A stretch of 64,000 nucleotides of DNA from Pseudomonadota bacterium (GTDB lineage Bacteria > Pseudomonadota > Gammaproteobacteria > Enterobacterales > JBCCZV01). The position numbers were made by a program, and so were the translations under genes. The notes below the pieces were generated by a model that was given only the letters and a program-made list of their open reading frames with translations, was not told the DNA's origin and made no database searches. The DNA lies in NCBI GenBank assembly GCA_039187085.1, contig JBCCZV010000004.1, positions 2,492 through 66,491 on the forward strand, given 5' to 3'. Of this stretch, positions 5,865-39,003 are shown in pieces (within the stretch, counting starts at the first letter, position 1; each line of letters begins with the position of its first letter).

Positions 5865-7715
5865 CTAAAAGCGGTATTCTAGCGTGGCTCTGTACTCACG
5901 CCCTGCACCAGGATATTGATCGATAACAAAATAATCTTTATCAAAAAGATTATTGATCTTTATGGATAATAACCAATCTTGAAACCCTTCATAACTGGCA
6001 ATGGCATTCATCAAATTTCTTGCTGAGATAGTTATATCGCCAACATCTGATTGACGCCCATGATGTTCAAACTCTAAAGCACCATACCAAACTTCTTCCC
6101 AATTCATACTGACATTATAAAAAGCGGTAAAATATGGCCTTCTAATTAATTGTTGATCTGAATTTTTATCTTTTGCATCTTGATGACTTAATGTTAATTC
6201 ATGTGTAAGTTCATAAGATGCCAAACGTAATGTCAAATCAGTACCAAAGACTTCCGCTTTGTCGATATTAATAGGTTGAAAAACCCCTGTATCTGGATTA
6301 CTAGACCAAGTAATTAAATTATCGTATTCAGTAAAATACACTGAGCTTTCAAGTTCAAAAAAAGGATGAAGATAGCGAATTAAAAACTCTGAGTTATCGG
6401 CAATTTCTGAAACCAAGTCGGGATTCCCCATACTGCCAAAAGCTTCAGGGAAATACAAATCATTAAATGTTGGGGCTTTAAAACCACGAGCATGAGACAA
6501 AGTCATTAGCATGTTTTTTGTAGTAAAAAAACCTAAGCTTGCGTGATAAGTAAATTCTTCATCAATTCCTTCAACATCATCGTAACGTAATGATGCTTCT
6601 ATTTGTAACTGTTGCCTTTGATACTGCATGATTCCAAAAAGCGCTGAAACTTCTCTTTCTGTTTCACTGTATTGATCTCGCGTTTCAATAGACTCGAGAT
6701 ACCAATCAACACCAACGGAAACATCTACATGGCTTTGTATTGAAAAATGATTCACTAAATTCAGCTGTGTTCGGTCTGTTTTAAATAACGAAGTCGATGA
6801 ACCAGGAACAATTTCATCCGCATTATCTTCATCACGATCTTGTGAAAAACCCGCACTGAACTCTAGACGGCTGACACCCATATCGATTTGGTTTGTCCAG
6901 TGAACAAAACCGTTACGGTAATCTGTTTCGTCCCCGCCAAAACCACTATCAAATTCTACATTTCCTTGATCCCACTGTCCGCTGAGTTGTGAACGCCATA
7001 TATCAGATAAATATTTCTGACCATGAAAAGTGAAAGACTGGCGCTCATAGCCGTCATCATCAGGTTGGTCAACGGCAAAGGGATTACTTAAATCTGGTCG
7101 AATAACATCAAAACCATCAGAACTTTCTGATGAAAAAGTCACGCTGATGCCTTCTTTATCACCGATACCAAATCCACCACTCACTCCCCAATACGCATTA
7201 CTCCCTAAGCCAGCTTTTACATAACCTTCTTGTTGACGAAATTGACGAGTGAATATTTGGATCACGCCACCAATAGCATCCGATCCCCATAGTGAAGCAC
7301 GAGGGCCTCTTACAACCTCAACACGTTCAATCTGATCGACAGATAAACTGGATGTTGATTTTACACCAACAGTAGCCGATCCAACACGCATACCATCAAT
7401 CAAAATTAAAACGTGATCGGAATTACTACCCCTGAAAAACAAATCTGTATTATGAGCTTCCGTACCCTGAGTGATTTTCGTTACACCAGCAACACGCTGT
7501 AAAAGCTCTGCCAAAGATCGAGGTTGGATTTTTTCAATTTCTTCACGCTCAAAAACATCAATCGCAGCTAGTGCTTCCGATTGACTTTGTAGTACCCGCG
7601 AAGAAGTCACCTCTATAACTTCAGCATTATTTTCTGCTAATGATAAAGGTGTATGCATTAAACCAATAATAGCCATGCTCAGCATGACGGGTTTTCCCAT
7701 AATAATCAATTTCAT
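5865..7715 (-). CDS. btuB: TonB-dependent vitamin B12 outer membrane receptor
   Basis: ORF 5865..7754. Likely start is M14 (MKLIIMG..., signal peptide ending SLAENN). TonB box EVIEVTSSR, plug and beta-barrel, C-terminal ...TLEYRF. Last gene of the riboswitch-controlled operon. Confidence 0.85.
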   Translation of the reverse strand: MKLIIMGKPVMLSMAIIGLMHTPLSLAENNAEVIEVTSSRVLQSQSEALAAIDVFEREEIEKIQPRSLAELLQRVAGVTKITQGTEAHNTDLFFRGSNSDHVLILIDGMRVGSATVGVKSTSSLSVDQIERVEVVRGPRASLWGSDAIGGVIQIFTRQFRQQEGYVKAGLGSNAYWGVSGGFGIGDKEGISVTFSSESSDGFDVIRPDLSNPFAVDQPDDDGYERQSFTFHGQKYLSDIWRSQLSGQWDQGNVEFDSGFGGDETDYRNGFVHWTNQIDMGVSRLEFSAGFSQDRDEDNADEIVPGSSTSLFKTDRTQLNLVNHFSIQSHVDVSVGVDWYLESIETRDQYSETEREVSALFGIMQYQRQQLQIEASLRYDDVEGIDEEFTYHASLGFFTTKNMLMTLSHARGFKAPTFNDLYFPEAFGSMGNPDLVSEIADNSEFLIRYLHPFFELESSVYFTEYDNLITWSSNPDTGVFQPINIDKAEVFGTDLTLRLASYELTHELTLSHQDAKDKNSDQQLIRRPYFTAFYNVSMNWEEVWYGALEFEHHGRQSDVGDITISARNLMNAIASYEGFQDWLLSIKINNLFDKDYFVIDQYPGAGREYRATLEYRF

Positions 7716-7725
7716 TTTTCTCTCT

Positions 7726-8604
7726 TTAGTTTGTTTTGTACGAAGAGTTAGCATCGTGTGAGTAAAATTGTCGTGATTGTTCTAATTTTTCGCAAAGATT
7801 TATTAATTCGCCTAAAACACGTTCAGACATTCTATGGAGTTTATCAGCATCAAGTTGAATAATTTGCTGATTTTTTACTGCAGGTATTAATGTATAACGA
7901 TTCCAATCAATGTGTAAATTTTGCGGTGTACTTGCTGCTAAAGGCTGAATAATGACTTGTGGTTGCCATTGAAAAACACGTTCTAAACTCACCGTAGGAT
8001 AATCATTAGCTACGCTATCAATAACATTTTCTGCACCACAAATTTTTAACATTTGCATTGGCCAAGCTTGACGTGCTATAGAGGTTAAAGGTTTAGGAAA
8101 CAATTCATAAAAAACGCGCACCTTCGATTTCCCAAAATATTTTTTCTGTATGGCATTAAGCTTTTTTAAAAAACGATCCGCTTGATAGTTGGCCGTATCT
8201 TCTAACCCCAAAACCTTACCAAAATATTGCATTTCCTTAGCCACATCATCTAATTCTTTAGGTTCGGAAAAAATAATTGATAAACCTAAATCCTTGAGGC
8301 GCAGCAAATCGTTAGAAGAATTACCGGATTGCCAAGCAATAATCAAATCAGGCTTCAATGCAAATATTTTTTCAACCTGCAATCTACTATAATTACCAAT
8401 GATTGGGATGTTTTTTGCTTGTTCGGGGTAATCAGCGTGACTCGTGGTGCCGATAATACGTGAACCTGCTCCTATCAAGTATAATTGCTCAACGATATGT
8501 GGCGCTAAAGCAATCACTCGCTGAGGAGCCTCTGCGCTTATTTTTTTTGAGAAAATAATGAAAGCCGCTATAACTAAAATTAAGCGTATTGTGTTAAAAG
8601 ACAT
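7726..8604 (-). CDS. btuF: periplasmic vitamin B12-binding protein
   Basis: 292 aa with signal peptide. RVIALAPHIVEQLYLIGAG...ALKPDLIIAW aligns by eye with E. coli BtuF RVITLSPANTEL...ALKPDLVIAW. Confidence 0.75.
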   Translation of the reverse strand: MSFNTIRLILVIAAFIIFSKKISAEAPQRVIALAPHIVEQLYLIGAGSRIIGTTSHADYPEQAKNIPIIGNYSRLQVEKIFALKPDLIIAWQSGNSSNDLLRLKDLGLSIIFSEPKELDDVAKEMQYFGKVLGLEDTANYQADRFLKKLNAIQKKYFGKSKVRVFYELFPKPLTSIARQAWPMQMLKICGAENVIDSVANDYPTVSLERVFQWQPQVIIQPLAASTPQNLHIDWNRYTLIPAVKNQQIIQLDADKLHRMSERVLGELINLCEKLEQSRQFYSHDANSSYKTN

Positions 8605-11116: not shown

Positions 11117-11213
11117 TGATTAAAAGACGCCAAGAACAAGGCAGGAAATCATAGAAGATGCCAGTGGTGTTGAAACCATTGAATCATCGTGTTTTCCCGC
11201 ACGAAATCAATAG

Positions 11214-11380
11214 CTTGTAGGGCTGGTATCCTGACTCGTCGTGATAACCCGTTAAAACCCTTCCCAGCTTTTGGCCAGTGGTTTTTGTTTTAAAAGCACG
11301 ACTTACAGTTGCGGGCACAGTTACGGATTTTCACCGTATTCCCATTTAATGCTTTCAATACTTGAATGCAACCCTACAAG
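11214..11380 (-). promoter_or_regulatory. cobalamin (B12) riboswitch aptamer; expression platform runs on to about 11117
   Basis: Minus strand reads CTTGTAGG...GGGAATACGGTGAAAATCCGTAACTGTGCCCGCAACTGTAAG...CCACTGGCCAAAAGCTGGGAAGG...AGTCAGGATACCAGCCCTACAAG. This gives the conserved GGTGAAAATCC / CCCGCAACTGTAA core and a B12 box (AGTCAGGATACCAGCC). An 8-bp P1 forms between CTTGTAGG and CCTACAAG. Confidence 0.88.
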
Positions 11381-11472
11381 TTTCATGGAGCGGAATCATA
11401 GCAAAGTCTTTGTGTGATGTCGATGCTGAAATACTCGTTTAACAAAACACATTGAATGAGTTGCTTCATATA

Positions 11473-23292: not shown

Positions 23293-24108
23293 TCACCTGG
23301 TCGCCGCTTGTCGCATATCCTTAACAAATGAAGATAAGTTTTCTAACATAACAGGCACATCATCAACATTTTCTTCAATAATTCTTACAACGGCTGATCC
23401 TGAAATCGCACCTTTTGCACCGGCTGCTTTGGCTGCTTTAACATGCTCAGTTTTTGAAATACCAAATCCTAATACCGGCGGAGCGGATTTCATTTGGGTT
23501 AAACGATTGATCATGGAGTCAGGAGGCATACTCGCCACCACTTCAGTGCCAGTAACACCTGCACGACTTAACATATATACATAGCCTTGACTATGTTCAG
23601 CCACTAAATGTACTACATCATCGCTGGCGTCCGGCGGCAATATCAAGACTTGTTCCAATGCATATTTTTTTGCCGCATCTAAAAACGGATGTGCTTCAAG
23701 CAAAGGGACATCCGCGACTAAAATGGAATCGACACCAATTTTAGACAAGCGTTGATAAAAAGCGTCCACACCTCCGCGCATTACCAAATTGCAGTAGGTG
23801 AGTAATCCAATAGGAATATCAGGATATTCTTCACGAATTTCTTTGAGCAACTGTAATGACTGTTCAATGGTCACTTGATTATCCAAGGCTCTTATGGACG
23901 CTTTTTGAATAGTTGGCCCATCCGCGATAGGGTCAGAAAAAGGAAAACCTAACTCAAGCGCATCTGCACCTGAAGCAATCAAGGTTTTGATAATTGACTT
24001 ACTGGTCTCAATGTCTGGATCACCGAGCGTGACGAAAGGGATAAACGCAATACGGTTTTGCGCTTCTACCTGTTGAAACACAGGTCCATAACGATTACTC
24101 ATTTTCAT
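23293..24108 (-). CDS. trpA: tryptophan synthase alpha chain
   Basis: 271 aa. [27 protein letters not shown] and GFGIS motifs. Confidence 0.95.
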
Positions 24109-25297
24109 TTACCTCTTGGTTTTTTAATACACGCCTGACGTGTTCCAGATCTTTGTCACCACGACCCGAGAGATTAATTAAAATCGTACTCGGCTCCGTT
24201 TGTTCTTGTGCATATTTGTATGCGTAAGCTAATGCATGCGCTGATTCCAATGCAGGAATAATACCTTCCGTTTCAGATAAACGCTTAAATGCTATCAAGG
24301 CTTCATCATCCGTCACAGCCACATACTCTGCCCTCCCAATATCTTTCAAATGTGCATGCTGAGGACCTACTGCGGGATAATCTAAACCAGCGGAAACCGA
24401 ATAACTCTCTTCAATTTGCCCCTCTTCTGTTTGCATAATATAAGTGCGGGCACCGTGTAACACGCCCGATTCACCTTTCGTCAATGTTGCTCCGTGATGA
24501 TGAGTGTCAATGCCTTTTCCGCCGGGTTCAACACCTATCAAGCGTACATTTTCCTCTTCAATGAAGTCAGCAAACATACCAATAGCGTTTGAGCCACCAC
24601 CCACGCAAGCAATCACAGCGTCAGGTAATACTGTCTCTTTTTCTAATATTTGCTTTTTGGCTTCTTCACCTATCATACGCTGAAATTCACGCACTAACGT
24701 TGGAAAAGGATGAGGACCAGCCGCTGTTCCCAATAAATAATGCGTATCTTTGTAAGTAGCGGACCAATCTCTCATGGCTTCGTTAACAGCATCTTTAAGC
24801 GTACCACTTCCAGCACTGACCGGTATAACGCGTGCGCCCATAAGTTGCATACGAAAAACATTGGGCTGCTGACGAGCACAATCTTTCGCTCCCATGTAGA
24901 TACGTGCATTTAAGCCGAGCAGAGCACAGGCAATGGCGGTTGCAACACCATGCTGCCCAGCTCCAGTTTCGGCAATAATTTCATTTTTTCCCATACGCTT
25001 AGCCAAAAGTGCTTGACCTAGCACTTGATTGGTTTTGTGTGCACCACCATGTAATAAATCTTCGCGTTTAAGGTAGATTTTGACTTTTGGGTTAGGTGAA
25101 AACTGCCGACAAAGCGTTAAGGGAGTTGGGCGTCCCGCATACTCCTTTAAAAGGGTAGCAAACTCATGTTTAAATTCTGAGTCATTTTGCGCTTTAAAAA
25201 AAGCTTCTTCTAATTGCGTTAAAGCCGGCATTAAAATCTCAGGCACGTACATGCCGCCATAGTCACCAAAGTAACGGTTATAGTGGAGAGCTTTCAT
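24095..25297 (-). CDS. trpB: tryptophan synthase beta chain
   Basis: ORF runs to 25309 from TTG. GAGGAA-N4-ATG at 25297 is the likely start. PLP lysine motif HGGAHKTNQ, plus GGGSNAIG. Confidence 0.95.
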
Positions 25298-25401
25298 TAT
25301 TTTCCTCAAATTTTGACAATTAAGGGCCTTAGCAAATCATATAGCGAGGGCTCTAAATAAAAAATAATTAAGTATTATCTGAAACTTTTGTGTTATTCAC
25401 C

Positions 25402-26790
25402 TTAAATCACGTAATCATCGCGTAATTGCGCAAAAAGCTGTGATATTTTTACTGAATCCTTGTAACCCTTTACCGACTCGACACCAGAATTTACATCTAA
25501 AATTCCAGAAAAATTTTGTCGAGCTTCAATAATATTGTTCGGGGATAACCCGCCTGCAAGTATAAAGCGTTGATCTTGCTTTATTTTTTCAGGAATATCT
25601 TGCCAAGATAAAACTTGGCCTGTTCCTCCAAAAGCATCACCAGCTTTTGAATCTAATAGTGTACGATCAGCGTAGGCCACTAGCTCAATTGAGCCCACTT
25701 CATTTCCTGGAATTGCCTGCCAAATTTCTACACCTTTAGGTAATTCACGACGCAATTCCGCACGATAGGCGTCGTTTTCTTGGCCATGAAGTTGAACAGC
25801 GAATAGCTTGAGCAAGGCTGCCGTTTGCACAATTTCTGGTATAGGTTGATTAACAAAAACACCGACAAAATCAAGATCAGCCGCTTCAGTAATCAATTTG
25901 GCTTGTTTAACACTAATTGCACGAATAGATTTTGGTGCAAAAATTAACCCTCCATAACGCGCCCCAGAACGAGCTGCTATTTGTGCAATATCCGCATGCA
26001 TCAAGCCGCACACTTTAATATCGCCATGCGTTAGACCTGCAGACGCTTTTCGTAAATTTGGTATACTCATTAATGCGCTACCTACCAAGAAAGCGTCAAC
26101 GCTTGACGCTAAGTGCTTGATGTGTTGATAGGACTGGATTCCCGATTCTGACACTAATAGTGAGCGAGAAGTATTTTTCGCGCTCAGCTTCATTGAAGTT
26201 TCAATATCAATACTCAAATCTTTTAAATTACGATTATTGATCCCAATAATTTTAGCGCCGAGTTGCGTAGCACGGTGAAGTTCTTCTTCAGTGTGAACTT
26301 CAGTAAGTACATCCATCTGCCATTTTGTTGCAACTTTATGTAATGACCGATAATCATCGTCATCTAAAACCGATAACATTAATAACACAGCATCCGCACC
26401 GTAATATCGTGCTTTTAAAATCTGATATTCATCAAAAATAAAATCTTTACACAAAACCGGCTTATTTGATTGTTGCTTAACTAATGTTAGATTGGCATCA
26501 GCCCCTTGAAAATAATCCGGTTCTGTTAATACTGAAATGGCAGCAGCATAGTCGTTGTAAACTGTTAGGATTTTTTCTATATCAAAATCTTCGCGTAATA
26601 ATCCCCGAGATGGTGACGCTTTTTTACATTCCAAGATAAACTGTGGTCCAGGCTTACGTAATGCTTCTTCTAAACTCCGCATGGAAACAGTTAATTGCTC
26701 TTCTATTAGAGCTATAGGTAGTCTGGTTTTATCGATTTCTATGCGTTCTTTGCGTCGTTCCACAATAGTATCAAGTACACTTTTAGCCAT
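25402..26790 (-). CDS. trpC: bifunctional indole-3-glycerol phosphate synthase / phosphoribosylanthranilate isomerase
   Basis: 462 aa with an IGPS half (ECKKASPSRG, LLM) followed by a PRAI half (KVCGL...). This is the TrpC-TrpF fusion seen in enterobacteria. Confidence 0.9.
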   Translation of the reverse strand: MAKSVLDTIVERRKERIEIDKTRLPIALIEEQLTVSMRSLEEALRKPGPQFILECKKASPSRGLLREDFDIEKILTVYNDYAAAISVLTEPDYFQGADANLTLVKQQSNKPVLCKDFIFDEYQILKARYYGADAVLLMLSVLDDDDYRSLHKVATKWQMDVLTEVHTEEELHRATQLGAKIIGINNRNLKDLSIDIETSMKLSAKNTSRSLLVSESGIQSYQHIKHLASSVDAFLVGSALMSIPNLRKASAGLTHGDIKVCGLMHADIAQIAARSGARYGGLIFAPKSIRAISVKQAKLITEAADLDFVGVFVNQPIPEIVQTAALLKLFAVQLHGQENDAYRAELRRELPKGVEIWQAIPGNEVGSIELVAYADRTLLDSKAGDAFGGTGQVLSWQDIPEKIKQDQRFILAGGLSPNNIIEARQNFSGILDVNSGVESVKGYKDSVKISQLFAQLRDDYVI

Positions 26791-27793
26791 TGGTCATCTC
26801 CACCAACTGCTCTAATTTTTTCAAGGCTTTACCTTGATGCAAAATGTCTAAAGTAAAATCCATGGCTTCTTTAAGCGTGTTTTTGATGCCGTATAAGTAC
26901 ACCAGTGCAGCAGTATTCATAGCAATGATATGTCGATGAGCAAGGTCACCTTCACCTGCCAACACAGCACGAATAGCTTGTGCATTTTCTTGCGCGTCTC
27001 CTCCGACAATTGCAGAAAGCTCAGCACGCTCTATCCCGAAGTCACTAGGTTCAATTGTATATTCTGTTATTTTGCCTTGATTCATTTCTGCCACTTGTGT
27101 AACACCATGCAAAGCAATTTCATCCAGCCCTTCTCCATGTACCACCATGGCTCGTTGGCAACCTAAATGTGCAAGAGTTTCGGCTATGGGTCGGCATAAT
27201 GTCGGGTCGTAAACTCCCATTAATTGAACTTCTGGTTTTGCTGGGTTCGACAAAGGACCTAGGACATTAAAAATTGTACGTGTTGCTAACGTTTTGCGAA
27301 TAGGTGCTGCATGACGTACGCCTTGATGATAAAAAGGGGCATAGAGAAAACACACATCAAGTTCTTGCAAACATTTCTCAGCTACCTCGGCATCATGTTC
27401 TACTTTAACACCGAGCATTTCAAGTACATCTGCAGAACCACACTGCGAAGATACGGAACGATTTCCATGCTTTGCCATAGGAATACCACAAGCTGCGGCT
27501 ACAAAAGATGCTGCAGTAGAAATATTGATAGTTTTTAATCCATCTCCTCCAGTACCACAAGAATCCGCAACCGGTTTGCTTGGTTTCGCGAATGATTGAC
27601 ATGCCCTTCTAACAGCCTGAGCAGCACCAGCAATTTCTTGGGGAGTTTCTCCTTTTATTTTTAGACCAATAATTGCTGCGGTCATAGTAATAACATCCAT
27701 GTCACCATTCACAATGTCATGGAAGAGCTGATTACTTTCTTCTTGTGTTAATGCCTCAGCAAGATAGAGCTTATCCAATAATGCTAACATCAA
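26783..27793 (-). CDS. trpD: anthranilate phosphoribosyltransferase
   Basis: 336 aa with CGTGGDG and KHGNRSVSS motifs. Confidence 0.92.
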   Translation of the reverse strand: MMLALLDKLYLAEALTQEESNQLFHDIVNGDMDVITMTAAIIGLKIKGETPQEIAGAAQAVRRACQSFAKPSKPVADSCGTGGDGLKTINISTAASFVAAACGIPMAKHGNRSVSSQCGSADVLEMLGVKVEHDAEVAEKCLQELDVCFLYAPFYHQGVRHAAPIRKTLATRTIFNVLGPLSNPAKPEVQLMGVYDPTLCRPIAETLAHLGCQRAMVVHGEGLDEIALHGVTQVAEMNQGKITEYTIEPSDFGIERAELSAIVGGDAQENAQAIRAVLAGEGDLAHRHIIAMNTAALVYLYGIKNTLKEAMDFTLDILHQGKALKKLEQLVEMTNG

Positions 27794-27832
27794 TACTTTC
27801 TCCTCTAATGCGTTAAAATTTTGTTAAAAACT

Positions 27833-28435
27833 CTAGAAATGTTGCTGTAACCAATGGATAGTTTGTTGTAATAATTGATAGCCTTGTGTGCTTAAAATAG
27901 ATTCGGGATGAAACTGAAAACCTACGATTCGATGATGGTCATCAACAAAACTCATGATAATTTCTTCAAAGTGTGCAATTGCTTTAAGTTCCGAAGGCAA
28001 TTCACTTACAACAAGAGAGTGATAACGTGCAATACGTAAGTTTTTCGGTAAATCAGAAAAAATAGTATGAGATTCCAGTTGAATCGTACTCGCTTTGCCA
28101 TGAACAATAACATCGGTTTGAGTCACTTGTGCACCGTAACTCAAAGCAATGGCTTGATGACCTAAACAAATACCTAACATTGGCAGTTTCCCTTTAAATC
28201 GATTAACGATTGCCACTAGCTTACCTGCCTCAGCAGGATGACCAGGACCAGGAGAAAGCACCAAAACGGTTTTTGGGTGTTGAGCAACAAATCGGTCAAT
28301 TAAATCCAAAGAAACATCATTACGATATACAGTGACGGCATAGTTTAACTTCAATAAATCATCAACCAAGTTGTAGGTAAATGAATCATAATTATCAATA
28401 AATAAGATATGCATATTTTTTTCGTATGAATTCAT
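27833..28435 (-). CDS. trpG: anthranilate synthase component II (glutamine amidotransferase)
   Basis: 200 aa. GICLGHQ catalytic Cys and FHPES. ATGA-type overlap with trpE. Confidence 0.92.
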   Translation of the reverse strand: MNSYEKNMHILFIDNYDSFTYNLVDDLLKLNYAVTVYRNDVSLDLIDRFVAQHPKTVLVLSPGPGHPAEAGKLVAIVNRFKGKLPMLGICLGHQAIALSYGAQVTQTDVIVHGKASTIQLESHTIFSDLPKNLRIARYHSLVVSELPSELKAIAHFEEIIMSFVDDHHRIVGFQFHPESILSTQGYQLLQQTIHWLQQHF

Positions 28436-30048
28436 ACTGATACCTCATCATCAATTTGAATATCAAAATGATGCGCTTCTGCGATCGCTTTAATGACCGC
28501 CATAGCTTTATTTAATGTTTCTGTAACTTCAGCGTCTGGATCTGAGTCATGAACAATACCCGCCCCTGCTTTAATATAAGCCATTTGATTTTTAATCAAT
28601 GCTGAGCGTATAACGATGCAGGTATCCATATTACGCTCGCCATCCAGATAACCGACGGCACCACCATATGCCCCACGACGCTTTTTTTCGACACGACGCA
28701 AAATTTCGGCTGCTTTTATTTTAGGTGCGCCCACTAAAGTTCCCATGTTCATACAAGCCAGGTAGGCATGAAGCGCATCCAATTCATTTCGCAGTTCCCC
28801 TCTAACTCGTGAAACCAAATGCATAACATGAGAGTATCTATCCACATTGAGTAATTCAGGCACATGACGAGAGCCCGGCTTAGATATACGAGCAATATCA
28901 TTTCTCGCAAGATCAACCAACATGAGATGCTCCGTTACCTCTTTTTCATCCATTTTCAGTTCGGCTTCAATTTTAGCATCGAGATCTAAATTCAATTGAC
29001 CATCATGATATTTACCTCGAGGTCTGGTGCCTGCGATAGGGTAGACTTCAACATGTCTCGAAGACTCTTCATATTTAACAGCACTTTCTGGAGATGCGCC
29101 AAATAATTGAAAGTTATCATCGTTCATAAAAAACATGTAAGGACTGGGATTTAAACTTTTGAGTTTTCGATAACTCAGAAAAGGATGAGTACAAGGTAAG
29201 CTAAATGTCCTTGAAGGAACAATTTGAAAAACCTCTCCTTTAGCAATTTCTTGCTTCATAGCACCAACAACGGATTTATACTCGGAACGACTCACATCAA
29301 CGGCTACGGATTGTTTTTGTGTATGGGTATTTAAATCCGGCAATGCAAATACTGTTCCTTCACTTACAGACTCAATTTGCCGTTTTAAATCAGCTAGCGT
29401 ACGACTCATATCAAAATAGCAAGCTTCTTGATTTTCTCCATCAAACACATTACCAATTAATCGAGCACTGTAACGTTTATGGTCAATAACTAATAAGGTT
29501 TCAGCAAGATAAAACACATAGTTGGGTGTATCAGCTTCTCCCGTATTAACCTCAGGTAAGGTTTCAAAGGTTTCTATCAAATCATAACCAAATAAACCAC
29601 ATAAAAAGCTTGAATAAGGCTCATTAGATTTACCAAAAACTTGTTGTATTTTTCTCAGAACATCAACAGGAGAGCGCGAAAATAGCCGTCCTTCTTCATC
29701 TTGATTGCGATCATTTTCTTCATAACTTAATGTGAGATGTTCATCTGAAGAAGAAGTCTCATCATCAGTCAAATTTAACTTTAACAATTTAAGAGCTTGA
29801 ACACCGTTAGCGTTAAGTGCTGATAGCGTTACTTGCCGTTCAACACAAACAATTCGCAACACAGAAGACAGAACCAAAAGGCTTTTTTCTGCATGTTTCG
29901 ATCCTATTTCACTAGACTCTAATAGCATGGTTGATTTTTTTTTGCCTTGATAAGTCAGGTGATAAAAAATATTTAAAGGGTCATGCTGACAATCCACTTT
30001 AACACTTAAGGATTTAACCTTAGGTTTCGTGTTTACAAAGGTAGTCAT
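28432..30048 (-). CDS. trpE: anthranilate synthase component I
   Basis: 538 aa chorismate-binding fold (GAPKIKAAEIL, GAYGGAVGYL, GAGIVHDSDP). The ATG overlaps the stop of the upstream DAHPS-like gene (ATGA at 30045-30048). Confidence 0.92.
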   Translation of the reverse strand: MTTFVNTKPKVKSLSVKVDCQHDPLNIFYHLTYQGKKKSTMLLESSEIGSKHAEKSLLVLSSVLRIVCVERQVTLSALNANGVQALKLLKLNLTDDETSSSDEHLTLSYEENDRNQDEEGRLFSRSPVDVLRKIQQVFGKSNEPYSSFLCGLFGYDLIETFETLPEVNTGEADTPNYVFYLAETLLVIDHKRYSARLIGNVFDGENQEACYFDMSRTLADLKRQIESVSEGTVFALPDLNTHTQKQSVAVDVSRSEYKSVVGAMKQEIAKGEVFQIVPSRTFSLPCTHPFLSYRKLKSLNPSPYMFFMNDDNFQLFGASPESAVKYEESSRHVEVYPIAGTRPRGKYHDGQLNLDLDAKIEAELKMDEKEVTEHLMLVDLARNDIARISKPGSRHVPELLNVDRYSHVMHLVSRVRGELRNELDALHAYLACMNMGTLVGAPKIKAAEILRRVEKKRRGAYGGAVGYLDGERNMDTCIVIRSALIKNQMAYIKAGAGIVHDSDPDAEVTETLNKAMAVIKAIAEAHHFDIQIDDEVSV

Positions 30049-31061
30049 AATCTTTTCCCCGCTGCAGAAATAAAAGGCTCAAGTTCCAACATTAAGCGTT
30101 TAAATTGATTGGCTGTGAGAGATTGGTATTCATCAGAAACGCTTTCGTTGAGTTTCAGGTGTGTTTCTAACATCAAACCGTCAGCACCACATGCAATAGC
30201 AGCTTTAGCCAAGGGTGTTACTAATTCTCTTATTGTTGTACCGTAAGATGGGTCAACTATGACGGGCAAATGTGATTTAGTCTTAATATAAGCGACAGCA
30301 TTTAAGTCCAAAGTGTTGCGAGCTGCATTTTCAATGGTTTGAATTCCTTGTTCACACAGTACAATATTTTCGTTACCTTCGTTATAGATGTATTCTGCCG
30401 CTAGTAAAAATTCTTCAATCGAAGCTGATAAGCCTCTTTTTAATAGAACAGGTTTTTGGGTTTGCCCAACACTTTTTAGTAATGCGTAGTTTTGCATATT
30501 TCTGGCATCGATTTGGAACATATCAACATATTCGCTAATACTTTCAACATCACGTGTATCAATGACTTCAGAAATCATTGCTAGGCCACTCTTATCAGCC
30601 GCCGCCCGCATCAACTTCAATCCCTCATACCCTAAGCCTTGAAAAGAGTAAGGACTGCTTCCCGGTTTAAATGTACCACCGCTCAGACCTGAAGCGCCAC
30701 TTTCTTTTACCATGGTGGCAATATCCTCAATTTGCGTAGCGTTTTCAACGGTACGGGGACCCGCTATCACTGAAAACACCTCTGAGCCAATGGTAAAATG
30801 TTCATTAATGTTTACCAAAGTATCATGTGCGTGAAACTCTCTGCTCACTAATTTATAAGGAGTAGTAACTGGTTTTATCGCTTCAATTAATGTACTAGGT
30901 AACGTGCTTAAGCGCTTTAACGCTGATTCTTCTCCGATGGCACCAATAACAAGTCGCTCTATTCCTGGCATCAAAAGCGGCTTCACTCCATGATCTTCTA
31001 TAAGTTTTACGAGCTGTTTCGCATCTTCATGCGTGGTCTCAGGTTTTAAAATAATTATCAT
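30045..31061 (-). CDS. DAHP synthase type I-beta-like protein with N-terminal ferredoxin-like domain; catalytic motifs substituted
   Basis: ORF runs to 31076 from TTG. AAGG-N5-ATG at 31061 is likely (MIIILKPE...). Colinear with Thermotoga/Bacillus-type DAHPS (YKLVSREF, SPYSFQGLG, ARNMQN, LLKRG, VSD). It reads GPRTVE where I recall GPCSVE, KPGSS for KPRTS, CEQGIQT for CERGIRT and DPSYG for DPSHS. Confidence 0.8.
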   Translation of the reverse strand: MIIILKPETTHEDAKQLVKLIEDHGVKPLLMPGIERLVIGAIGEESALKRLSTLPSTLIEAIKPVTTPYKLVSREFHAHDTLVNINEHFTIGSEVFSVIAGPRTVENATQIEDIATMVKESGASGLSGGTFKPGSSPYSFQGLGYEGLKLMRAAADKSGLAMISEVIDTRDVESISEYVDMFQIDARNMQNYALLKSVGQTQKPVLLKRGLSASIEEFLLAAEYIYNEGNENIVLCEQGIQTIENAARNTLDLNAVAYIKTKSHLPVIVDPSYGTTIRELVTPLAKAAIACGADGLMLETHLKLNESVSDEYQSLTANQFKRLMLELEPFISAAGKRL

Positions 31062-31086
31062 CTCTACCTTGCTCAAATTATTGTTT

Positions 31087-31113
31087 AAAAAAAACCCGCC
31101 GTTGAGCGGGTTT
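31087..31113 (-). terminator. attenuator terminator 2 (proximal to the aro-trp operon)
   Basis: Minus strand AAACCCGC-TCAACG-GCGGGTTTTTTTT (8 U). It ends about 25 nt before the ATG at 31061. The upstream segment GAGTAGGGTTT (31148-31138) is near-complementary to the 5' arm AAACCCGCTC and could act as an antiterminator. Confidence 0.75.
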
Positions 31114-31142
31114 CCTTAGGTTAAAATTAAAACGGAAAAACC

Positions 31143-31199
31143 CTACTCTATTAAGCAGAACCACCACCAAAAGCTATCTTGAAATAAGCATTTACACAC
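31143..31199 (-). CDS. putative trp leader peptide 2 ((M)CKCLFQDSFWWWFCLIE)
   Basis: AGGA-N9-GTG TGT AAA TGC TTA TTT CAA GAT AGC TTT TGG TGG TGG TTC TGC TTA ATA GAG TAG. Three consecutive Trp codons, and the stop codon lies inside the antiterminator segment. The GTG start is the weak point. Confidence 0.55.
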   Translation of the reverse strand: MCKCLFQDSFWWWFCLIE

Positions 31200-31246
31200 G
31201 TTTAATTTTCCTACGATACCAATAAGTTATTCCCATAAGCAAAATA

Positions 31247-31280
31247 CAAAAACAAAAAAGCCCGCTTTCGCGGGCTTTTT
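31247..31280 (-). terminator. attenuator terminator 1 (distal)
   Basis: Minus strand AAAAAGCCCGC-GAAA-GCGGGCTTTTTTGTTTTTG. The upstream GTGGGC (31312-31307) can pair with the GCCCGC arm (one G-U) as an antiterminator. Confidence 0.75.
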
Positions 31281-31318
31281 ACTAATAAGTGCTCGTGCAC
31301 GGCATTGCCCACTCCTAT

Positions 31319-31363
31319 TTAAGAATGTAGCCACCACCAGATTTTTGCACGTACACTATACAT
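31319..31363 (-). CDS. trpL: putative trp leader peptide 1 (MYSVRAKIWWWLHS)
   Basis: GGAGA-N7-ATG TAT AGT GTA CGT GCA AAA ATC TGG TGG TGG CTA CAT TCT TAA. Good SD, ATG start, three consecutive Trp codons, followed by an antiterminator and terminator. Confidence 0.75.
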   Translation of the reverse strand: MYSVRAKIWWWLHS

Positions 31364-31504
31364 TGTATTCTCTCCAAAAATAATAATCTTAGGCTAACAG
31401 ATATCATCAATGAGTCAAGCTATATTCACGAGACTTTTCTGACAATGTTGCAGTAGCTATTTTAAATAACTGATTAATCCATTATTCAAGTCAAAGTCTT
31501 TGAA

Positions 31505-34096
31505 TTACTCTGTCAACACAAATTCTCGTGCTGATTCGCGCCGATTATACATTGAGCCCATTACTTTGCCGTAAGCACCGGTATTAGCTATTGCAATAAT
31601 GTCGCCTTCTTCTGTCATGGGAAGATGACGGTCAACGCCTAATTTATCACCAGTCTCGCAAATAGGTCCAACAATATCAACCGTTTCGCAGGCGGCTTGA
31701 TTCAGTTTGGTCAAATTTGCAATTTCATGATGTGCCCCATAAAGAGCTGGACGTATGAGTGAGTTCATACCTGTGCTGATTCCAACATATTTGTGGCCTT
31801 CTTTTCCTTTTGTTTGTGTCACAGTGGCTAATAACACACCAGATTGCGCTACCAAAAAGCGTCCTGGCTCCAACCAGTATTCATACTGAGGAAAAGCTTT
31901 CTTCACTTCGCTTAATACACCATCGAGGGCAGCAAAATTCAATGCGACGTCAGAGTTCTTTTCAGGTACGCCCAATCCACCACCAAGATCGAGGTATTTA
32001 ACGTCAGGAAAGTTTTCAGCAACCTTGACTAGTGTTAATGCGGTATTTTTCCAATTTTCGTGATCCAAAATGCCAGACCCCGAATGTGAATGTAAACCAA
32101 TCACTCGACAATCGGTTTGTTTTACTGCTGTTACTAATTCATCCATTTGGAAAAGCGGTACACCGAATTTTGACTGGTTACCCGCTGTTTTGACATGCTC
32201 ATGATGCCCCTGCCCCTTGCCAGGATCGATTCGAATAAGAATGTCTCTACCCTTAAAGACTTCAGGCCAAGCCTGTAAAGGATAGAGGTTATCCAACGTT
32301 AATATCACGCCTTTTTCTATGCCATATTGATACTCTTCTCGCGGAGCAAAATTTGGTGTAAACAATATGCGCTGCTTGTCTAAGCTTGGAAATAGTGCTA
32401 ATACGTGCTCAATTTCTTCTGGACTTACGCATTCGAAGCCCATATTGGCGTCATAAACACGCTGTAAGATTTCAGGATGAGCATTAGCTTTAATGGCGTA
32501 AAAAACGCGCTTTATAGAAGACAAACTTTGTAATTGGTCAATCGCACCTTGCACACTTGGCAAATGATAAACATAGGCATGTTGGTGCTGCTTGGCTAAG
32601 GCGATAAGTTCAGCAGCCTGGCGTTGCCACCAAGCCTTTGCAATCGCGGTCTTTTCTTCAGAGACTTTCGCAAAAATTTGTTCCCAAGCTAAGCCAAGAA
32701 TACTGCTATCTGCATTTTGCGTGATAAAAATCTCATGGAGCTGTTGGACCAACCGATCCGCTTGCAATTCGTCAACAACAATCGTCAAGTTCAAATCATT
32801 AGCGGCTTGTGATAATAAATGAATTTTATGCTCATGGAAAACTTCAAAAGCATCCGCCAATTTATGGAGTATGGTGCGGATATTGTGTCCCACGATAGAG
32901 ACTGCTGCACAGTTTTCAAGTACACTAACTCGACATATAGTACTCAACTGACGTTGCAAATGCTCTAAAGTCTGTCGCTTTATTTTTCCAGCAGATGGAT
33001 CTAAAGAAACCGTCACACTCGATTCTGAGGTAGATACTAAGTCCACCGATAAACCAAACTGCTTAAAATAGGCAAATGCATCGGCCAAAAATCCAACTTG
33101 ATGCCACATCCCTACGGTTTCCATTGAGATGAGAATGACATTTTTTCGTGCTGATATAGCTTTCACTTGGGCTACACCGGTCACATCATCCGTAATTAAT
33201 GTACCTTCAAGTTCAGGCTGGGGCGTACTGCAAATTTTAGTGGGTATTTTGCGTTCTCTGACAGGATGGATACAGCGTGGATGAAGAATTTTCGCGCCTG
33301 TCGTTGCGATTTCTTGTGCTTCATCGTAAGAAATGTGTTTAATCAAACGAGCAGCAGGAATAGCTCGAGGATTTGCTGTAAACATACCAGGAACATCTGT
33401 CCATACTTCGTAGGATTTGGCTTCCAGTTTAGCTGCAAAATAAGCACCTGAAGTATCCGAGCCGCCCCGCCCTAACAGTACAGTTTCGCCATCAATGTTA
33501 CTAGCAATAAATCCTTGCGTGATAACCAAAGGACCATTTTCTTTAAAAACTCGTTGTAACTCTGGTTCTGGTTGAAAGTCACATGTAGAGTTCAAGTAAT
33601 GTTTTTCATCACCTAGAAGGACATCTCCCTCTGCCTTTAGGACATGGCGGGCATCTAACCAGTACGCAGCTACACTGAGCTCACGTTGTAAGTAGGCAGC
33701 ACCCAAAGTTGTTGACATCAATTCGCCGAGAGAGACGACTTTCGCTTGGGTACGTGGACTGTATTCTCCCACGAGTGATATGCCTTGTAAGGTATGCTCC
33801 AAAATCTCGAAATAGGCATTTAAGAGAGGCTCAGCAGTAAGGCCCAACTCTGTTGCCAATGTTACATGCTGTTCTCGTATAGCATTCACAACATCGATAT
33901 GCTCATTGGAAACACTACGATTGAGAGCTTCCTCCAATTGATTGGAAACTCCACTTAACGCCGAATGAACGATACAAACTCGAGCTTTATTCTCTAACTT
34001 TTGTTTCACAACCTTAGCAATAGTTGCCCAATTTTTAGCCGTTGAAACACTCGTGCCCCCAAACTTAAGTACTATCCAGGGATTTGTATTCGTCAT
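31505..34096 (-). CDS. bifunctional aspartate kinase / diaminopimelate decarboxylase (LysC-LysA fusion)
   Basis: 863 aa. The N-terminal half is an aspartokinase (VLKFGGTSV, GRGGSDTSG, two ACT-like segments). The C-terminal half is LysA-like (PLP Lys in YAIKANAHPE, GGGLGV, EPGR, CETGD). Single uninterrupted frame. Confidence 0.85.
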   Translation of the reverse strand: MTNTNPWIVLKFGGTSVSTAKNWATIAKVVKQKLENKARVCIVHSALSGVSNQLEEALNRSVSNEHIDVVNAIREQHVTLATELGLTAEPLLNAYFEILEHTLQGISLVGEYSPRTQAKVVSLGELMSTTLGAAYLQRELSVAAYWLDARHVLKAEGDVLLGDEKHYLNSTCDFQPEPELQRVFKENGPLVITQGFIASNIDGETVLLGRGGSDTSGAYFAAKLEAKSYEVWTDVPGMFTANPRAIPAARLIKHISYDEAQEIATTGAKILHPRCIHPVRERKIPTKICSTPQPELEGTLITDDVTGVAQVKAISARKNVILISMETVGMWHQVGFLADAFAYFKQFGLSVDLVSTSESSVTVSLDPSAGKIKRQTLEHLQRQLSTICRVSVLENCAAVSIVGHNIRTILHKLADAFEVFHEHKIHLLSQAANDLNLTIVVDELQADRLVQQLHEIFITQNADSSILGLAWEQIFAKVSEEKTAIAKAWWQRQAAELIALAKQHQHAYVYHLPSVQGAIDQLQSLSSIKRVFYAIKANAHPEILQRVYDANMGFECVSPEEIEHVLALFPSLDKQRILFTPNFAPREEYQYGIEKGVILTLDNLYPLQAWPEVFKGRDILIRIDPGKGQGHHEHVKTAGNQSKFGVPLFQMDELVTAVKQTDCRVIGLHSHSGSGILDHENWKNTALTLVKVAENFPDVKYLDLGGGLGVPEKNSDVALNFAALDGVLSEVKKAFPQYEYWLEPGRFLVAQSGVLLATVTQTKGKEGHKYVGISTGMNSLIRPALYGAHHEIANLTKLNQAACETVDIVGPICETGDKLGVDRHLPMTEEGDIIAIANTGAYGKVMGSMYNRRESAREFVLTE

Positions 34097-36387: not shown

Positions 36388-39003
36388 TCAATTCTGTAAT
36401 TTTTCTTGTATATATTGACGAATCACATTGACATCTGCGGGTAAGCTATCGCAACGTTGCGGTAAACCCTCAAGCGCTGCGATACTTGCAGTTTTTTCAG
36501 GCAATATACCTATGGCTTGATGCACGCTATCTGGAAATTTAGCCGGATGAGCAGTACTTAGACAAATCACTCTATCGTCGGTATATTTTTTTGCTGCAGC
36601 AACCCCTACTGCCGTGTGAGGGTCACATACAATACCTTCTTCAGCCAATGCTTTAATAGTCGCTAAAGTTTCTGATTGGCTAACTTTATACGCCACAAAA
36701 AATTGTTGAGCTTTTAACAATTGAGTTTCACTCAGTTGATATTGTGAATAAGCTTTTAATTCAGCCATTTTTGCTCTTACTATGGAACCATCGTAACCAC
36801 ACAGATCATATAAGAAGCGTTCAAAGTTACTGGATACCTGAATATCCATGGCAGGACTTAACGTCGCTTGTACTTCTGTTACTTTGTAGCAACCCGTTTT
36901 TAATGTGCGCTCAAGAATATTGTTTTCATTGGTAGCAATGATAAGCTTGTTAATTGGCAAACCCATTTTTGTGGCAATATATCCTGCGTAAATATCGCCA
37001 AAATTACCAGTTGGTACAGAAAAAATCACTGGTTTTTTTGGATTTGCTTCCTGAAAACGCAATGTTGCATAAAAGTAGTAAACAACCTGTGACAGTATTC
37101 GAGCCCAATTAATAGAGTTGACTGCGCCTAACTGAAGTTTATCTTTAAAATCTAAGTCACTAAACAATGCTTTAACAATATTTTGACAATCATCAAAAGT
37201 GCCATCAATAGCAATATTGAATACGTTTTCATCCAATACGGTTGTCATTTGTTGCTCTTGGACTTTACTGATCTTGTCTTTAGGGTGGAGCATGAATATA
37301 TTAATACCTGTTTTACCTCTTACCCCTGTTATAGCAGCACTGCCAGTATCACCCGACGTTGCTCCTAATATATTAAGTTGTCTTTGGTTTTTGCGAAGAA
37401 AATAGGAAAAAAGATTTCCTAAAAATTGTAGAGCAACATCTTTAAAAGCATGTGTTGGACCATGATAAAGCTCAACTAATGAAACTTGTTTGGTATGTGT
37501 GATAGGCGTAATGTCTGGATGTGAAAATGTGTTGTAACTATTTTGCACAAGTTCACGTAGATCATCTTTTGGAATAGATTCTCCAGTAAAAAGTTGAAAA
37601 ATTTCAAACGCTAACTGTTGATAACTCAACATTTTCCAACGCTGAAAACGCTCTTGTACATTCGGTATGACTTTGGGTATAAACAGCCCACCATCTCTAG
37701 CGAGACCCTCTAAGACGACTTGTTCAAAAGTGTATTTTTCTTGTTTGTCATTGTCGCTTCTTGTGCTCACATACTCGATATTAAAGACATTACTCTTAGT
37801 TCTTTTGTTATTTTTTAGCATACTTTTAATATTTTTTAGGGCTTGTCGGGTTCTTTGTTCGTTTTCTATCAGCGCAAAACGCACATAATTATCACTGTAT
37901 TGGCCGAAACCTATGCCAGGAGACACTGCGACATTGGTTTCCTTTAAAAGTTGCTTCGCAAAGTCTAATGACCCCATATGATTGAATGCGTCAGGAATTT
38001 TTGCCCAGACAAACATCGTCGCTTTAGGAAGAGGCACCGACCAACCTATTTGATTAAGCCCCTCATAAAGTACGTTTCTTCGTTTTTGATACATCTGGCG
38101 AATATCTTCAACACAATCTTGCGGTCCAGACAATGCTTCAATGGCTGCAACTTGAATAGGCGTGAAAATACCATAATCCAAATAAGATTTAAGCTTAGTG
38201 AGCGCACCGATTAGTATAGGGTTTCCACAGCAAAAACCAACCCGCCAACCCGCCATGTTATAGCTTTTGGATAACGAATAAAATTCTACAGCTATGTCTT
38301 TAGCTCCCGGTATTTGCAAAATTGAAGGGGCTCGATAACCATCATAGACTAATTCAGCGTAGGCTAAGTCATGCACTATCCAGATCTCATGTGCTTTTGC
38401 CAAATCGACAATACGCTGGAAAAAATCAAGCTCTACACATTGAGTACTTGGATTGGCAGGAAAATTCAATATAAGCATTTTTGGCCTTGGCCAGCTATTC
38501 GCAATTGCCTCTTCTAAAGAGTCAATAAAAGCATTGATGTTTTCACTGAGAGGCACATGCCGAACGTCCGCACCAGCAATAACGACACCGTAAGGATGGA
38601 TCGGATAAGCGGGGCTTGGTACTAAAACCGTATCGCCACGTTGCAAGGTTGCTAATGCTAAATGCGCTATTCCTTCTTTTGAGCCGATGGTAACAATCAC
38701 TTCGGAATCATGGTTAAGTTCAACTTGATATTGCCGCTGGTACCATTCAGCCATAGCTAATCGTAAGCGCTCAATACCCTTTGAGGAGGAATAACGGTGC
38801 GTTTGAGGGTTCGCTGCAGTTTCAACCAATTTGTTGATGATATGTTCAGGCGTGGCGCTATCCGGGTTGCCCATACTAAAATCAATGATATCTTCCCCTG
38901 CAGCACGCGCTTGCATCTTGAGCTCGCCAATCACATTGAAAACATACGGGGGAAGCCTGTCAATTCGGTCAAAGTGTTTCTTCACGGCTGAGTCTTCTCT
39001 CAA
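36388..39003 (-). CDS. fusion of class I/II PLP aminotransferase (AlaC/AspC-like) and threonine synthase
   Basis: 871 aa. Residues 1 to about 395 are aminotransferase ([25 protein letters not shown]-Lys). Residues from about 409 to the end are long-form ThrC ([20 protein letters not shown]-Lys). The junction ...[25 protein letters not shown] (37780-37818) has no stop and no frame change. The N-terminal start may be the GTG at 38985. Confidence 0.8.

Follow-up and report, generated by a model that had tools for sequence, protein, structure and literature searches.

Two putative tryptophan leader-peptide attenuators arranged in series ahead of a gammaproteobacterial DAHP synthase-trp operon

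The 64,000-nucleotide stretch of DNA analysed here (contig JBCCZV010000004.1 of a Pseudomonadota bacterium, class Gammaproteobacteria; called the window throughout, at its full length) carries on its minus strand a tryptophan (Trp) biosynthetic operon that begins with a DAHP synthase (DAHPS) gene and continues as trpEGD(CF)BA. Trp leader-peptide attenuation is textbook RNA-based control and is taught as one leader and one terminator. In the window two leader-peptide units lie one behind the other upstream of the DAHPS gene. From sequence and modelled RNA structure we conclude that the operon is probably controlled by two ribosome-mediated attenuators in series, on one leader transcript, both sensing charged tRNA-Trp. 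A preliminary description of the region had proposed such a series, and the proposal was supported by conservation of the tandem in seven other loci, by covariance-model matches to both units and by promoter scans of the DNA between the units.

Scans for sequence elements, open reading frames (ORFs) and terminators placed every element of both units at the minus-strand coordinates that had been given for them before (Table 1). Each unit has, found or predicted, what is expected of a Trp attenuator: an ORF led by a Shine-Dalgarno (SD) sequence and containing adjacent Trp codons, a terminator, an antiterminator and a 1:2 hairpin. The WWW run is followed by 3 codons ahead of the stop in leader 1 and by 5 in leader 2, and the first base of segment 2 of unit 1 lies 3 nt past the stop codon. 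The first terminator, T1, has its 5' arm (segment 3) at 31280-31270, its 3' arm (segment 4) at 31265-31255 and a U-tract (U6GU5) reaching to 31248. The second, T2, ends 25 nt ahead of the operon ATG, as described earlier. That ATG, at 31061, and not TTG 31076, is the start of the DAHPS gene (homologues begin MIIVLKP). The gap between DAHPS and lysC-lysA, the gene upstream, is therefore 443 nt; the 428 nt first reported presumed the TTG start, while the placement of both units inside the gap was correct.

Table 1. Features of the two putative attenuators and of the genes around them (window coordinates)
Feature	Position	Strand	Basis
Leader 1 SD, GGAGA, N7 to ATG 31363	31371..31375	-	sequence
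Leader ORF 1, MYSVRAKIWWWLHS; Trp codons 31339-31331, stop TAA 31321-31319	31319..31363	-	sequence; within 44.5-bit R1 match
Unit 1 segment 1, CUGGUGGUGGCUACAUUCU, contains Trp codons	31322..31340	-	RNAfold of 31363->31297 and 31363->31247
Unit 1 segment 2, AGGAGUGGGCAAUGCCG, core GUGGGC 31312-31307	31300..31316	-	folding
Terminator T1, AAAAAGCCCGC-GAAA-GCGGGCUUUUU and U-tract	31247..31280	-	-18.2 kcal/mol
Leader 2 SD, AGGA, N9 to GTG 31199	31209..31212	-	sequence
Leader ORF 2, (M)CKCLFQDSFWWWFCLIE, GTG start; Trp codons 31169-31161, stop TAG 31145-31143	31143..31199	-	sequence; 42.5-bit R1 match
Unit 2 segment 1, CUGCUU, directly 3' of Trp codons	31153..31158	-	RNAfold
Unit 2 segment 2, GAGUAGGGUUU, overlaps stop codon	31138..31148	-	folding
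Terminator T2, AAACCCGC-UCAACG-GCGGGUUUUUUUU, then U8	31087..31113	-	-15.9 kcal/mol
Best sigma-70-like candidate, ATGATA-16-TATTAT, 9/12, weak	31380..31407	-	consensus match only
lysC-lysA fusion, bifunctional aspartate kinase/diaminopimelate decarboxylase, 863 aa	31505..34096	-	NCBIfam NF006515, 1221 bits
DAHP synthase type I-beta, first regulated gene (predicted), N-terminal ferredoxin-like regulatory domain	30045..31061	-	NCBIfam NF006421; Pfam PF18152 and PF00793
trpE, trpG, trpD, trpC-trpF fusion, trpB, trpA, remainder of the regulated operon (predicted)	23293..30048	-	NCBIfam and ORF list

Recognition of the units was examined with a covariance model, R1, made from 14 units of relatives with the window left out and the terminator helix alone annotated. 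On the whole window R1 matched 31251-31345(-) with 44.5 bits (E 5e-8) and 31085-31177(-) with 42.5 bits (E 1.3e-7). Both matches are full-length, lie 74 nt apart (31251 to 31177) and have a terminator each. Beyond the two units, only the reverse strand of T1 gave E <1 in the window, and all other matches had E > 1. T1 is symmetric (31246-31284 +): an A-tract leads into a perfect GCCCGC/GCGGGC stem and a U-tract follows it. The opposite strand is scored as a terminator too (R1, 23.8 bits), though no convergent gene needs one. In 590 kb of unrelated DAHPS loci from metagenomes (43-54% relatives among the matches listed), R1 produced one match, which lies immediately ahead of a DAHPS gene and is truncated where the contig ends. 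The motif TGGTGGTGG also exceeds chance: it occurs 3 times on both strands of the 64 kb against 0.20 expected, and no shuffle attained 3. The third copy, at 31977-31985, lies inside lysC-lysA, out of frame, and is read as Gly codons.

When a 751-nt stretch was compared with Rfam, the best match of both units was Trp_leader RF00513, with 31.0 bits (E 2.9e-4) and 27.7 bits (E 2.1e-3), and no T-box or riboswitch family matched the leader region. The motif UGGUGGUGGCAC is common to the window units and those of relatives. By these sequence measures both units are diverged members of the classical Trp leader family. The units of relatives with E <= 0.01 have RF00513 scores of 32.8-46.1, and only 2/7 reach the gathering score of 41 bits. 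Since most bona fide units of relatives miss it, that threshold appears conservative for this clade, and annotation that relies on it overlooks both window units and most units of relatives.

The alternative structures expected of an attenuator were predicted by folding. For RNA free of ribosomes, RNAfold pairs 31340-31322 with 31316-31300 in unit 1, and CUGCUU (31158-31153) with GAGUAG (31148-31143) in a short, 6-bp hairpin in unit 2. To represent the decision time, the 5' part of unit 1 was masked as if a ribosome were stalled at its third UGG codon, and the 3' arm of T1 was left out. The resulting fold (-13.7 kcal/mol) contains a GC-rich helix of GUGGGC (31312-31307) with GCCCGC (31275-31270) of the T1 5' arm, the antiterminator pairing proposed in the preliminary description. 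The duplex has -12.7 kcal/mol compared with a shuffle mean of -7.7. With CUGCUU masked, the predicted decision-time fold of unit 2 (-13.1 kcal/mol) pairs GAGU-A-GGGUUU (31148-31138) with AAACCCGCUC (31113-31104) over 10 bp; this duplex has -15.0 kcal/mol and 0/500 shuffles were as good. The near-complementarity noted earlier between these two strands of unit 2 is thus predicted to give a pairing with one bulged A in place of a mismatch. In the predicted folds both units have the complete 1:2 / 2:3 / 3:4 logic of the E. coli trp attenuator.

The same decision-time fold, in which a segment at or just past the stop codon pairs with the GC core of the terminator 5' arm, was predicted for 16/16 units. 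We aligned these 16 units at the invariant GGG:CCC and examined the flanking positions. The pair seg2[+1]:arm[-1] is C:G in seven units, U:A in six and U:G in one, and is unpaired in two; position -4 of the antiterminator varies among G:C, A:U, U:A and U:G. With their own partners the units form 67/96 pairs, compared with 57.3 +/- 3.0 after permutation of partners between units, and only 6/5000 permutations reach 67; these counts treat kindred units as independent, so they carry no formal probability. In this alignment the modelled antiterminator covaries over the 16 units. The motif GAGUGGG/CCCGCUC is kept in unit 2 of most relatives.

The DAHPS of the window has no relative of >60% identity among 5.8 billion proteins, and its Uup protein none of >57%. 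When genome contigs were scanned with exact peptides of the window DAHPS, the enzymes retrieved had just 36-52% identity and came from Spirochaetes and some further phyla. Because neither protein has close relatives, the window was too divergent for an alignment of orthologous intergenic DNA, and the comparison was made on architecture. Single-unit loci were found in Enterovibrio baiacu, Thalassomonas actiniarum, Colwellia sp. and Aeromonas diversa (Vibrionales, Alteromonadales, Aeromonadales). These species have the same DAHPS-trp operon, divergent from a PHP-domain gene, with one WWW leader and terminator ahead of it. Two units were found in 7/7 distinct Aliikangiella-like loci (L024, L027, L111, L113, L114, L118, L119), which come from Aliikangiella maris, A. 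marina and five metagenomic relatives and again have the same DAHPS-trp operon. The preliminary description had named the conservation of only one unit in relatives as a result that would refute the series; this is what the four species show, but not the seven loci, all of which have two. In every Aliikangiella-like unit the W-rich ORF is intact and is accompanied by an antiterminator and a terminator. Leader pairs, given as leader 1/leader 2, end in ...GQWWWRHSL/...GNWWWNSLN, ...THWWWHL/...YAWWWHSIN, ...TLWWHWQN/...TAWWWHSDTLSG and ...TLWWWQLL/...NSWWWHLIALSG. L118 and L119 were outside the training set of R1, and R1 gives two matches in each. An operon that starts with DAHPS might have one leader that senses Phe or Tyr, and in window leader 2 F residues do flank the WWW, but we rejected this idea since the leaders of relatives share the Trp run only.

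Unit 1 and unit 2 are only 39-49% identical within every genome examined, in agreement with the earlier statement that they are not recent duplicates, and the divergence implies that both units have long been maintained. The best match of window unit 2 is unit 2 of L024 (z = 11, shared GAGUGGG...CCCGCUC), which suggests kinship with the second units of relatives; the resemblance of window unit 1 to their first units is ambiguous. In a midpoint-rooted neighbour-joining tree of DAHPS the window belongs to neither the Aliikangiella-like nor the Vibrio/Alteromonas-like clade, a position compatible with a tandem layout that is ancestral, was transferred with the operon or arose by convergence.

The maintenance of both units bears on the idea that one of them is left over from an old duplication, is decaying and has lost its regulatory role. 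Four related species thrive with one unit, leader 2 has a GTG start codon and the antiterminator of unit 1 is short, all of which would suit a relic. However, the ORF, Trp codons, antiterminator and strong terminator are intact in both units at 8/8 loci despite their low mutual identity, and a dead unit that retained a strong unconditional terminator would silence the operon. We therefore give the relic very little credence.

TrpR sites were also sought. In the upstream region of the window no TrpR-operator-like palindrome was found, the best consensus match having 8 mismatches. Upstream of the single attenuator of Enterovibrio baiacu (L025 3737-3754) lies the palindrome ACACTAGTTAACTAGTAC, with 2 mismatches from the TrpR operator consensus used. 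No other TrpR-box-like site was found in ten upstream regions, namely those of the window, five tandem loci and the four single-unit loci (L118 and L119 were not scanned). We considered a second attenuator as a replacement for TrpR repression and, on the regions scanned, rejected it, because a box is also missing from Thalassomonas, Colwellia and Aeromonas diversa, which have only one attenuator each. In Thalassomonas actiniarum (L115 2907-2969) the single attenuator is followed by an extra W-rich small ORF with a good SD (GAGGAATTAAAG-ATG; MLTTKVKSWFIWWLLPIYAG). It ends ~30 nt ahead of the DAHPS start, is not followed by a terminator and may be a translational second Trp check.

Whether the two units are read in series depends on where transcription starts. 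In 7/8 tandem loci leader 1 is preceded by a sigma-70-like site. In 5/7 non-window loci it comprises a perfect TTGACA, an 18-nt spacer and a -10 element ending 6-7 nt ahead of the leader-1 ATG (L027 3539-3577, L111 2597-2635, L119 2081-2119, L114 2550-2588 and L118 2009-2048; -10 elements TAAAGT, TACCTT or TAACTT). In the Aliikangiella-like loci leader 1 has no SD, and transcription is expected to start at or beside the A of AUG. A promoter ending so close to the ATG, together with the missing SD, implies that leader 1 would be translated there from leaderless mRNA; window leader 1, unlike these, is SD-led. In the window the best candidate is the weak site listed in Table 1, and the alternative hexamers TTGACT (31418-31413) and TAAGAT (31391-31386) are separated by a 21-nt spacer, which is too long. 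Unit 1 may in addition be reached by polymerases that read through from lysC-lysA.

Between T1 and leader 2 the sigma-70 consensus scan found no site of at least 8/12 in 6/8 tandem loci, including the window; L114 and L118 have weak 8/12 matches there, with longer spacers. The distance from the T1 U-tract to the start of leader 2 is 17 nt in L119, ~33 in L111, ~40 in L113, 47 in the window and ~136 in L118. The short spacers leave no room for a promoter, so unit 2 would be transcribed through T1 read-through; the short interval between T2 and the operon ATG likewise leaves none downstream of T2. We weighed against this an arrangement of two real attenuators with two starts, in which a promoter between T1 and leader 2 would drive most transcription and unit 1 would be a Trp-conditional insulator or booster of upstream read-through. 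The AT-rich inter-unit spacer of the window, the weak matches in L114 and L118, the ill-defined promoter ahead of window leader 1 and a scan limited to sigma-70 would all accommodate it. It is nevertheless unlikely, given the empty inter-unit regions of the six loci, the spacers of L119, L111 and L113, which are too short to hold a promoter outside the terminator itself, and the strong promoters of relatives, which stand upstream of leader 1 and not of leader 2.

A second question is whether unit 1 is an attenuator at all. In the 450 nt scanned upstream of DAHPS, T1 and T2 were the only terminators, so that lysC-lysA has none of its own before unit 1 and its transcripts would enter unit 1. On this sequence evidence T1 doubles as the only terminator of lysC-lysA. 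The preliminary description had allowed that hairpin 1 might be that terminator and nothing else, with a fortuitous WWW ORF and unit 2 as the sole attenuator, and the position of T1, 225 nt past the lysC-lysA stop codon, is far but possible for such a role. The relatives contradict this reading. In 7/7 Aliikangiella-like loci the upstream neighbour is a divergent cheW (cheW-DUF2802-gshA), so unit 1 there is not a neighbouring gene's terminator. In the window itself, unit 1 is a full-length R1 match that scores slightly above unit 2, it has an SD, an ATG, an in-frame WWW and a predicted 1:2 hairpin and antiterminator, and its TGGTGGTGG motif would rarely occur by chance. We regard a terminator-only role of hairpin 1 as scarcely tenable.

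Unit 1 could instead be mainly a stand-alone small gene, whose ~110-nt terminated transcript and/or 14-residue peptide acts in trans in the manner of rnTrpL/peTrpL, its place ahead of the operon being secondary. Trans functions have been documented for attenuator-derived small RNAs and leader peptides (PMC6614838, PMC7298713), and in several relatives leader 1 follows a strong promoter so closely that it resembles an independent leaderless unit. On the other hand, the leader peptides are unconserved beyond the W run and the conserved feature is the attenuator logic, including the antiterminator covariation. A mainly trans role therefore has only a slim chance, and it would be compatible with two attenuators acting in series.

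The series model that we prefer would work as follows. In each unit a ribosome would translate the short leader ORF, which has three UGG codons in a row. Given ample Trp it would reach the stop codon and, since segment 2 lies at or 3 nt past the stop, would cover segment 2; the terminator would form and polymerase would halt at T1, or at T2 if T1 had been escaped. At low Trp-tRNA the ribosome would stall on UGG and cover segment 1, segment 2 would pair with the terminator 5' arm and polymerase would read through. A polymerase coming from the upstream start or from lysC-lysA would thus pass T1 only with the leader 1 ribosome stalled at its Trp codons. Leader 2 would then need a fresh ribosome, and T2 would be passed only if that ribosome stalled in turn. 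Because loading and stalling would occur separately at each checkpoint, operon expression should be roughly the product of the two read-through fractions, r1 x r2. Compared with a single attenuator, such a product would reduce basal expression, widen the dynamic range and make the response to Trp-tRNA charging steeper. T1 would also end lysC-lysA transcripts and so, except when Trp is limiting, shield the trp operon from the lysC-lysA promoter. Since lysC-lysA transcripts must end at T1, Trp starvation could couple transcription of the lys gene to read-through into the trp operon.

Several points weigh against the series model. Both window units score below the RF00513 gathering threshold. The unit 1 antiterminator is short, with 6 bp closing a ~35-nt loop, and 2.8% of shuffles are as good. 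Leader 2 starts with GTG and has no in-frame ATG as an alternative. The expected start site of the 9/12 promoter candidate falls within the leader 1 SD, and by sequence the promoter of window unit 1 is poorly defined; a weak or alternative-sigma promoter between the units could have escaped scans that used the sigma-70 consensus only. The single units of the four related species mean that a second unit is not obligatory, and the kinship among units limits how the covariation counts can be read. Finally, translation of both ORFs, Trp-responsive termination, a single transcript and a multiplicative effect are steps that we infer from the elements and structures described above.

The NCBIfam matches confirmed the identities given earlier to the aro-trp operon and lysC-lysA, and the DAHPS stop codon overlaps the trpE start. 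Other features of the window include a TyrR-like sigma-54-type regulator at 74-1663(-) (NF008085, 518.6 bits, under the 576-bit cut-off), a candidate regulator of aromatic amino-acid genes in the source organism. In an 871-aa ORF at 36388-39003(-), residues 4-403 match an alanine-transaminase-like aminotransferase (NF006033, 710 bits) and residues 477-830 a threonine synthase domain (TIGR00260); the ORF is either an unusual fusion or two genes joined by the ORF call. The sole Rfam family above threshold in the window is a cobalamin riboswitch (RF00174, 116 bits) at 11204-11391(-), heading a cluster of minus-strand genes, the last of which (5865-7754) is TonB-dependent B12 receptor-like.

If the series model is correct, ribosome-mediated attenuators can be stacked in the manner of tandem riboswitches and T-boxes, with a sharper and deeper response, and the double T-boxes of Bacillota would be joined by gammaproteobacterial double leader peptides, two observations so far regarded as separate. 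Selection would then seem to act, whatever the mechanism, on the regulatory transfer function of the most costly amino acid. More tentatively, and with somewhat less than even confidence, we suggest that serial attenuation by the same signal is a conserved natural design, present in a marine gammaproteobacterial clade (Aliikangiella and uncultured kin) and in an unrelated deep-branching metagenome-assembled genome, that gives a squared, switch-like response to tRNA-Trp, is convergent with the tandem T-boxes of Bacillota and reflects repeated selection for a double check. The model is directly testable, as Aliikangiella species are cultured and the units are expected to function in E. coli reporters. 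The system would allow the combination of two stochastic termination decisions to be measured (dynamic range, Hill slope and noise), which bears on work on attenuation and transcriptional bursting.

Each unit taken singly resembles trpL of E. coli and other gammaproteobacteria (RF00513). Both have an SD-led ORF with consecutive Trp codons 3-5 codons ahead of the stop, a segment 2 adjoining the stop, a terminator of the GCCCGC...GCGGGC-U(n) type and alternative 1:2, 2:3 and 3:4 pairings, which are predicted here. The window differs from trpL in having two complete units and no TrpR-operator-like palindrome, and in having DAHP synthase instead of trpE as the first gene. In Sinorhizobium meliloti the Trp leader attenuator rnTrpL/peTrpL likewise yields a terminated transcript, there as a discrete small RNA (PMC6614838, PMC7298713); in contrast, the window peptides are unconserved beyond the Trp run, and no trans target was sought here.

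We found no description of tandem Trp leader-peptide attenuators in the open full-text literature searched, where comparative papers available by subscription were outside the scope and an earlier mention is possible. The literature on double or tandem attenuators yielded only the mgtCBR leader, synthetic pT181 tandems, tandem T-boxes and the rimP leader, in which Naville and Gautheret noted a second, tandem terminator for some Gammaproteobacteria (PMC2965389). In the Salmonella mgtCBR leader the ORFs mgtM and mgtP sense ATP and proline and act additively, without two intrinsic terminators; Lee and Groisman noted that biosynthetic operons normally have a single attenuator and regarded mgtCBR as a singular case (PMC3641672). 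As in mgtCBR, two short ORFs in one leader RNA would each be coupled to alternative structures that control transcription. However, both ORFs of the window carry WWW and would read one signal, and each has a canonical intrinsic terminator.

The closest parallel is provided by tandem T-boxes. According to a 2025 survey, these are the commonest contiguous arrangement in Bacillota, trp operon genes are their most enriched targets and a pseudo-cooperative, digital response is expected of them; leader peptides were not considered (PMC12452182). Common to both systems would be the trp operon as target, tRNA-Trp charging that is read twice, two units of sensor and terminator and an expected digital response. 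The sensor in the window would be a ribosome translating a leader ORF and not uncharged tRNA bound to RNA, and the phylum is different; the window tandem is by comparison an analogue of the tandem T-box and not a member of that class. The tandem arrangement is what sets the system apart and is best read, on this analogy, as the ribosome-mediated counterpart of tandem T-boxes.

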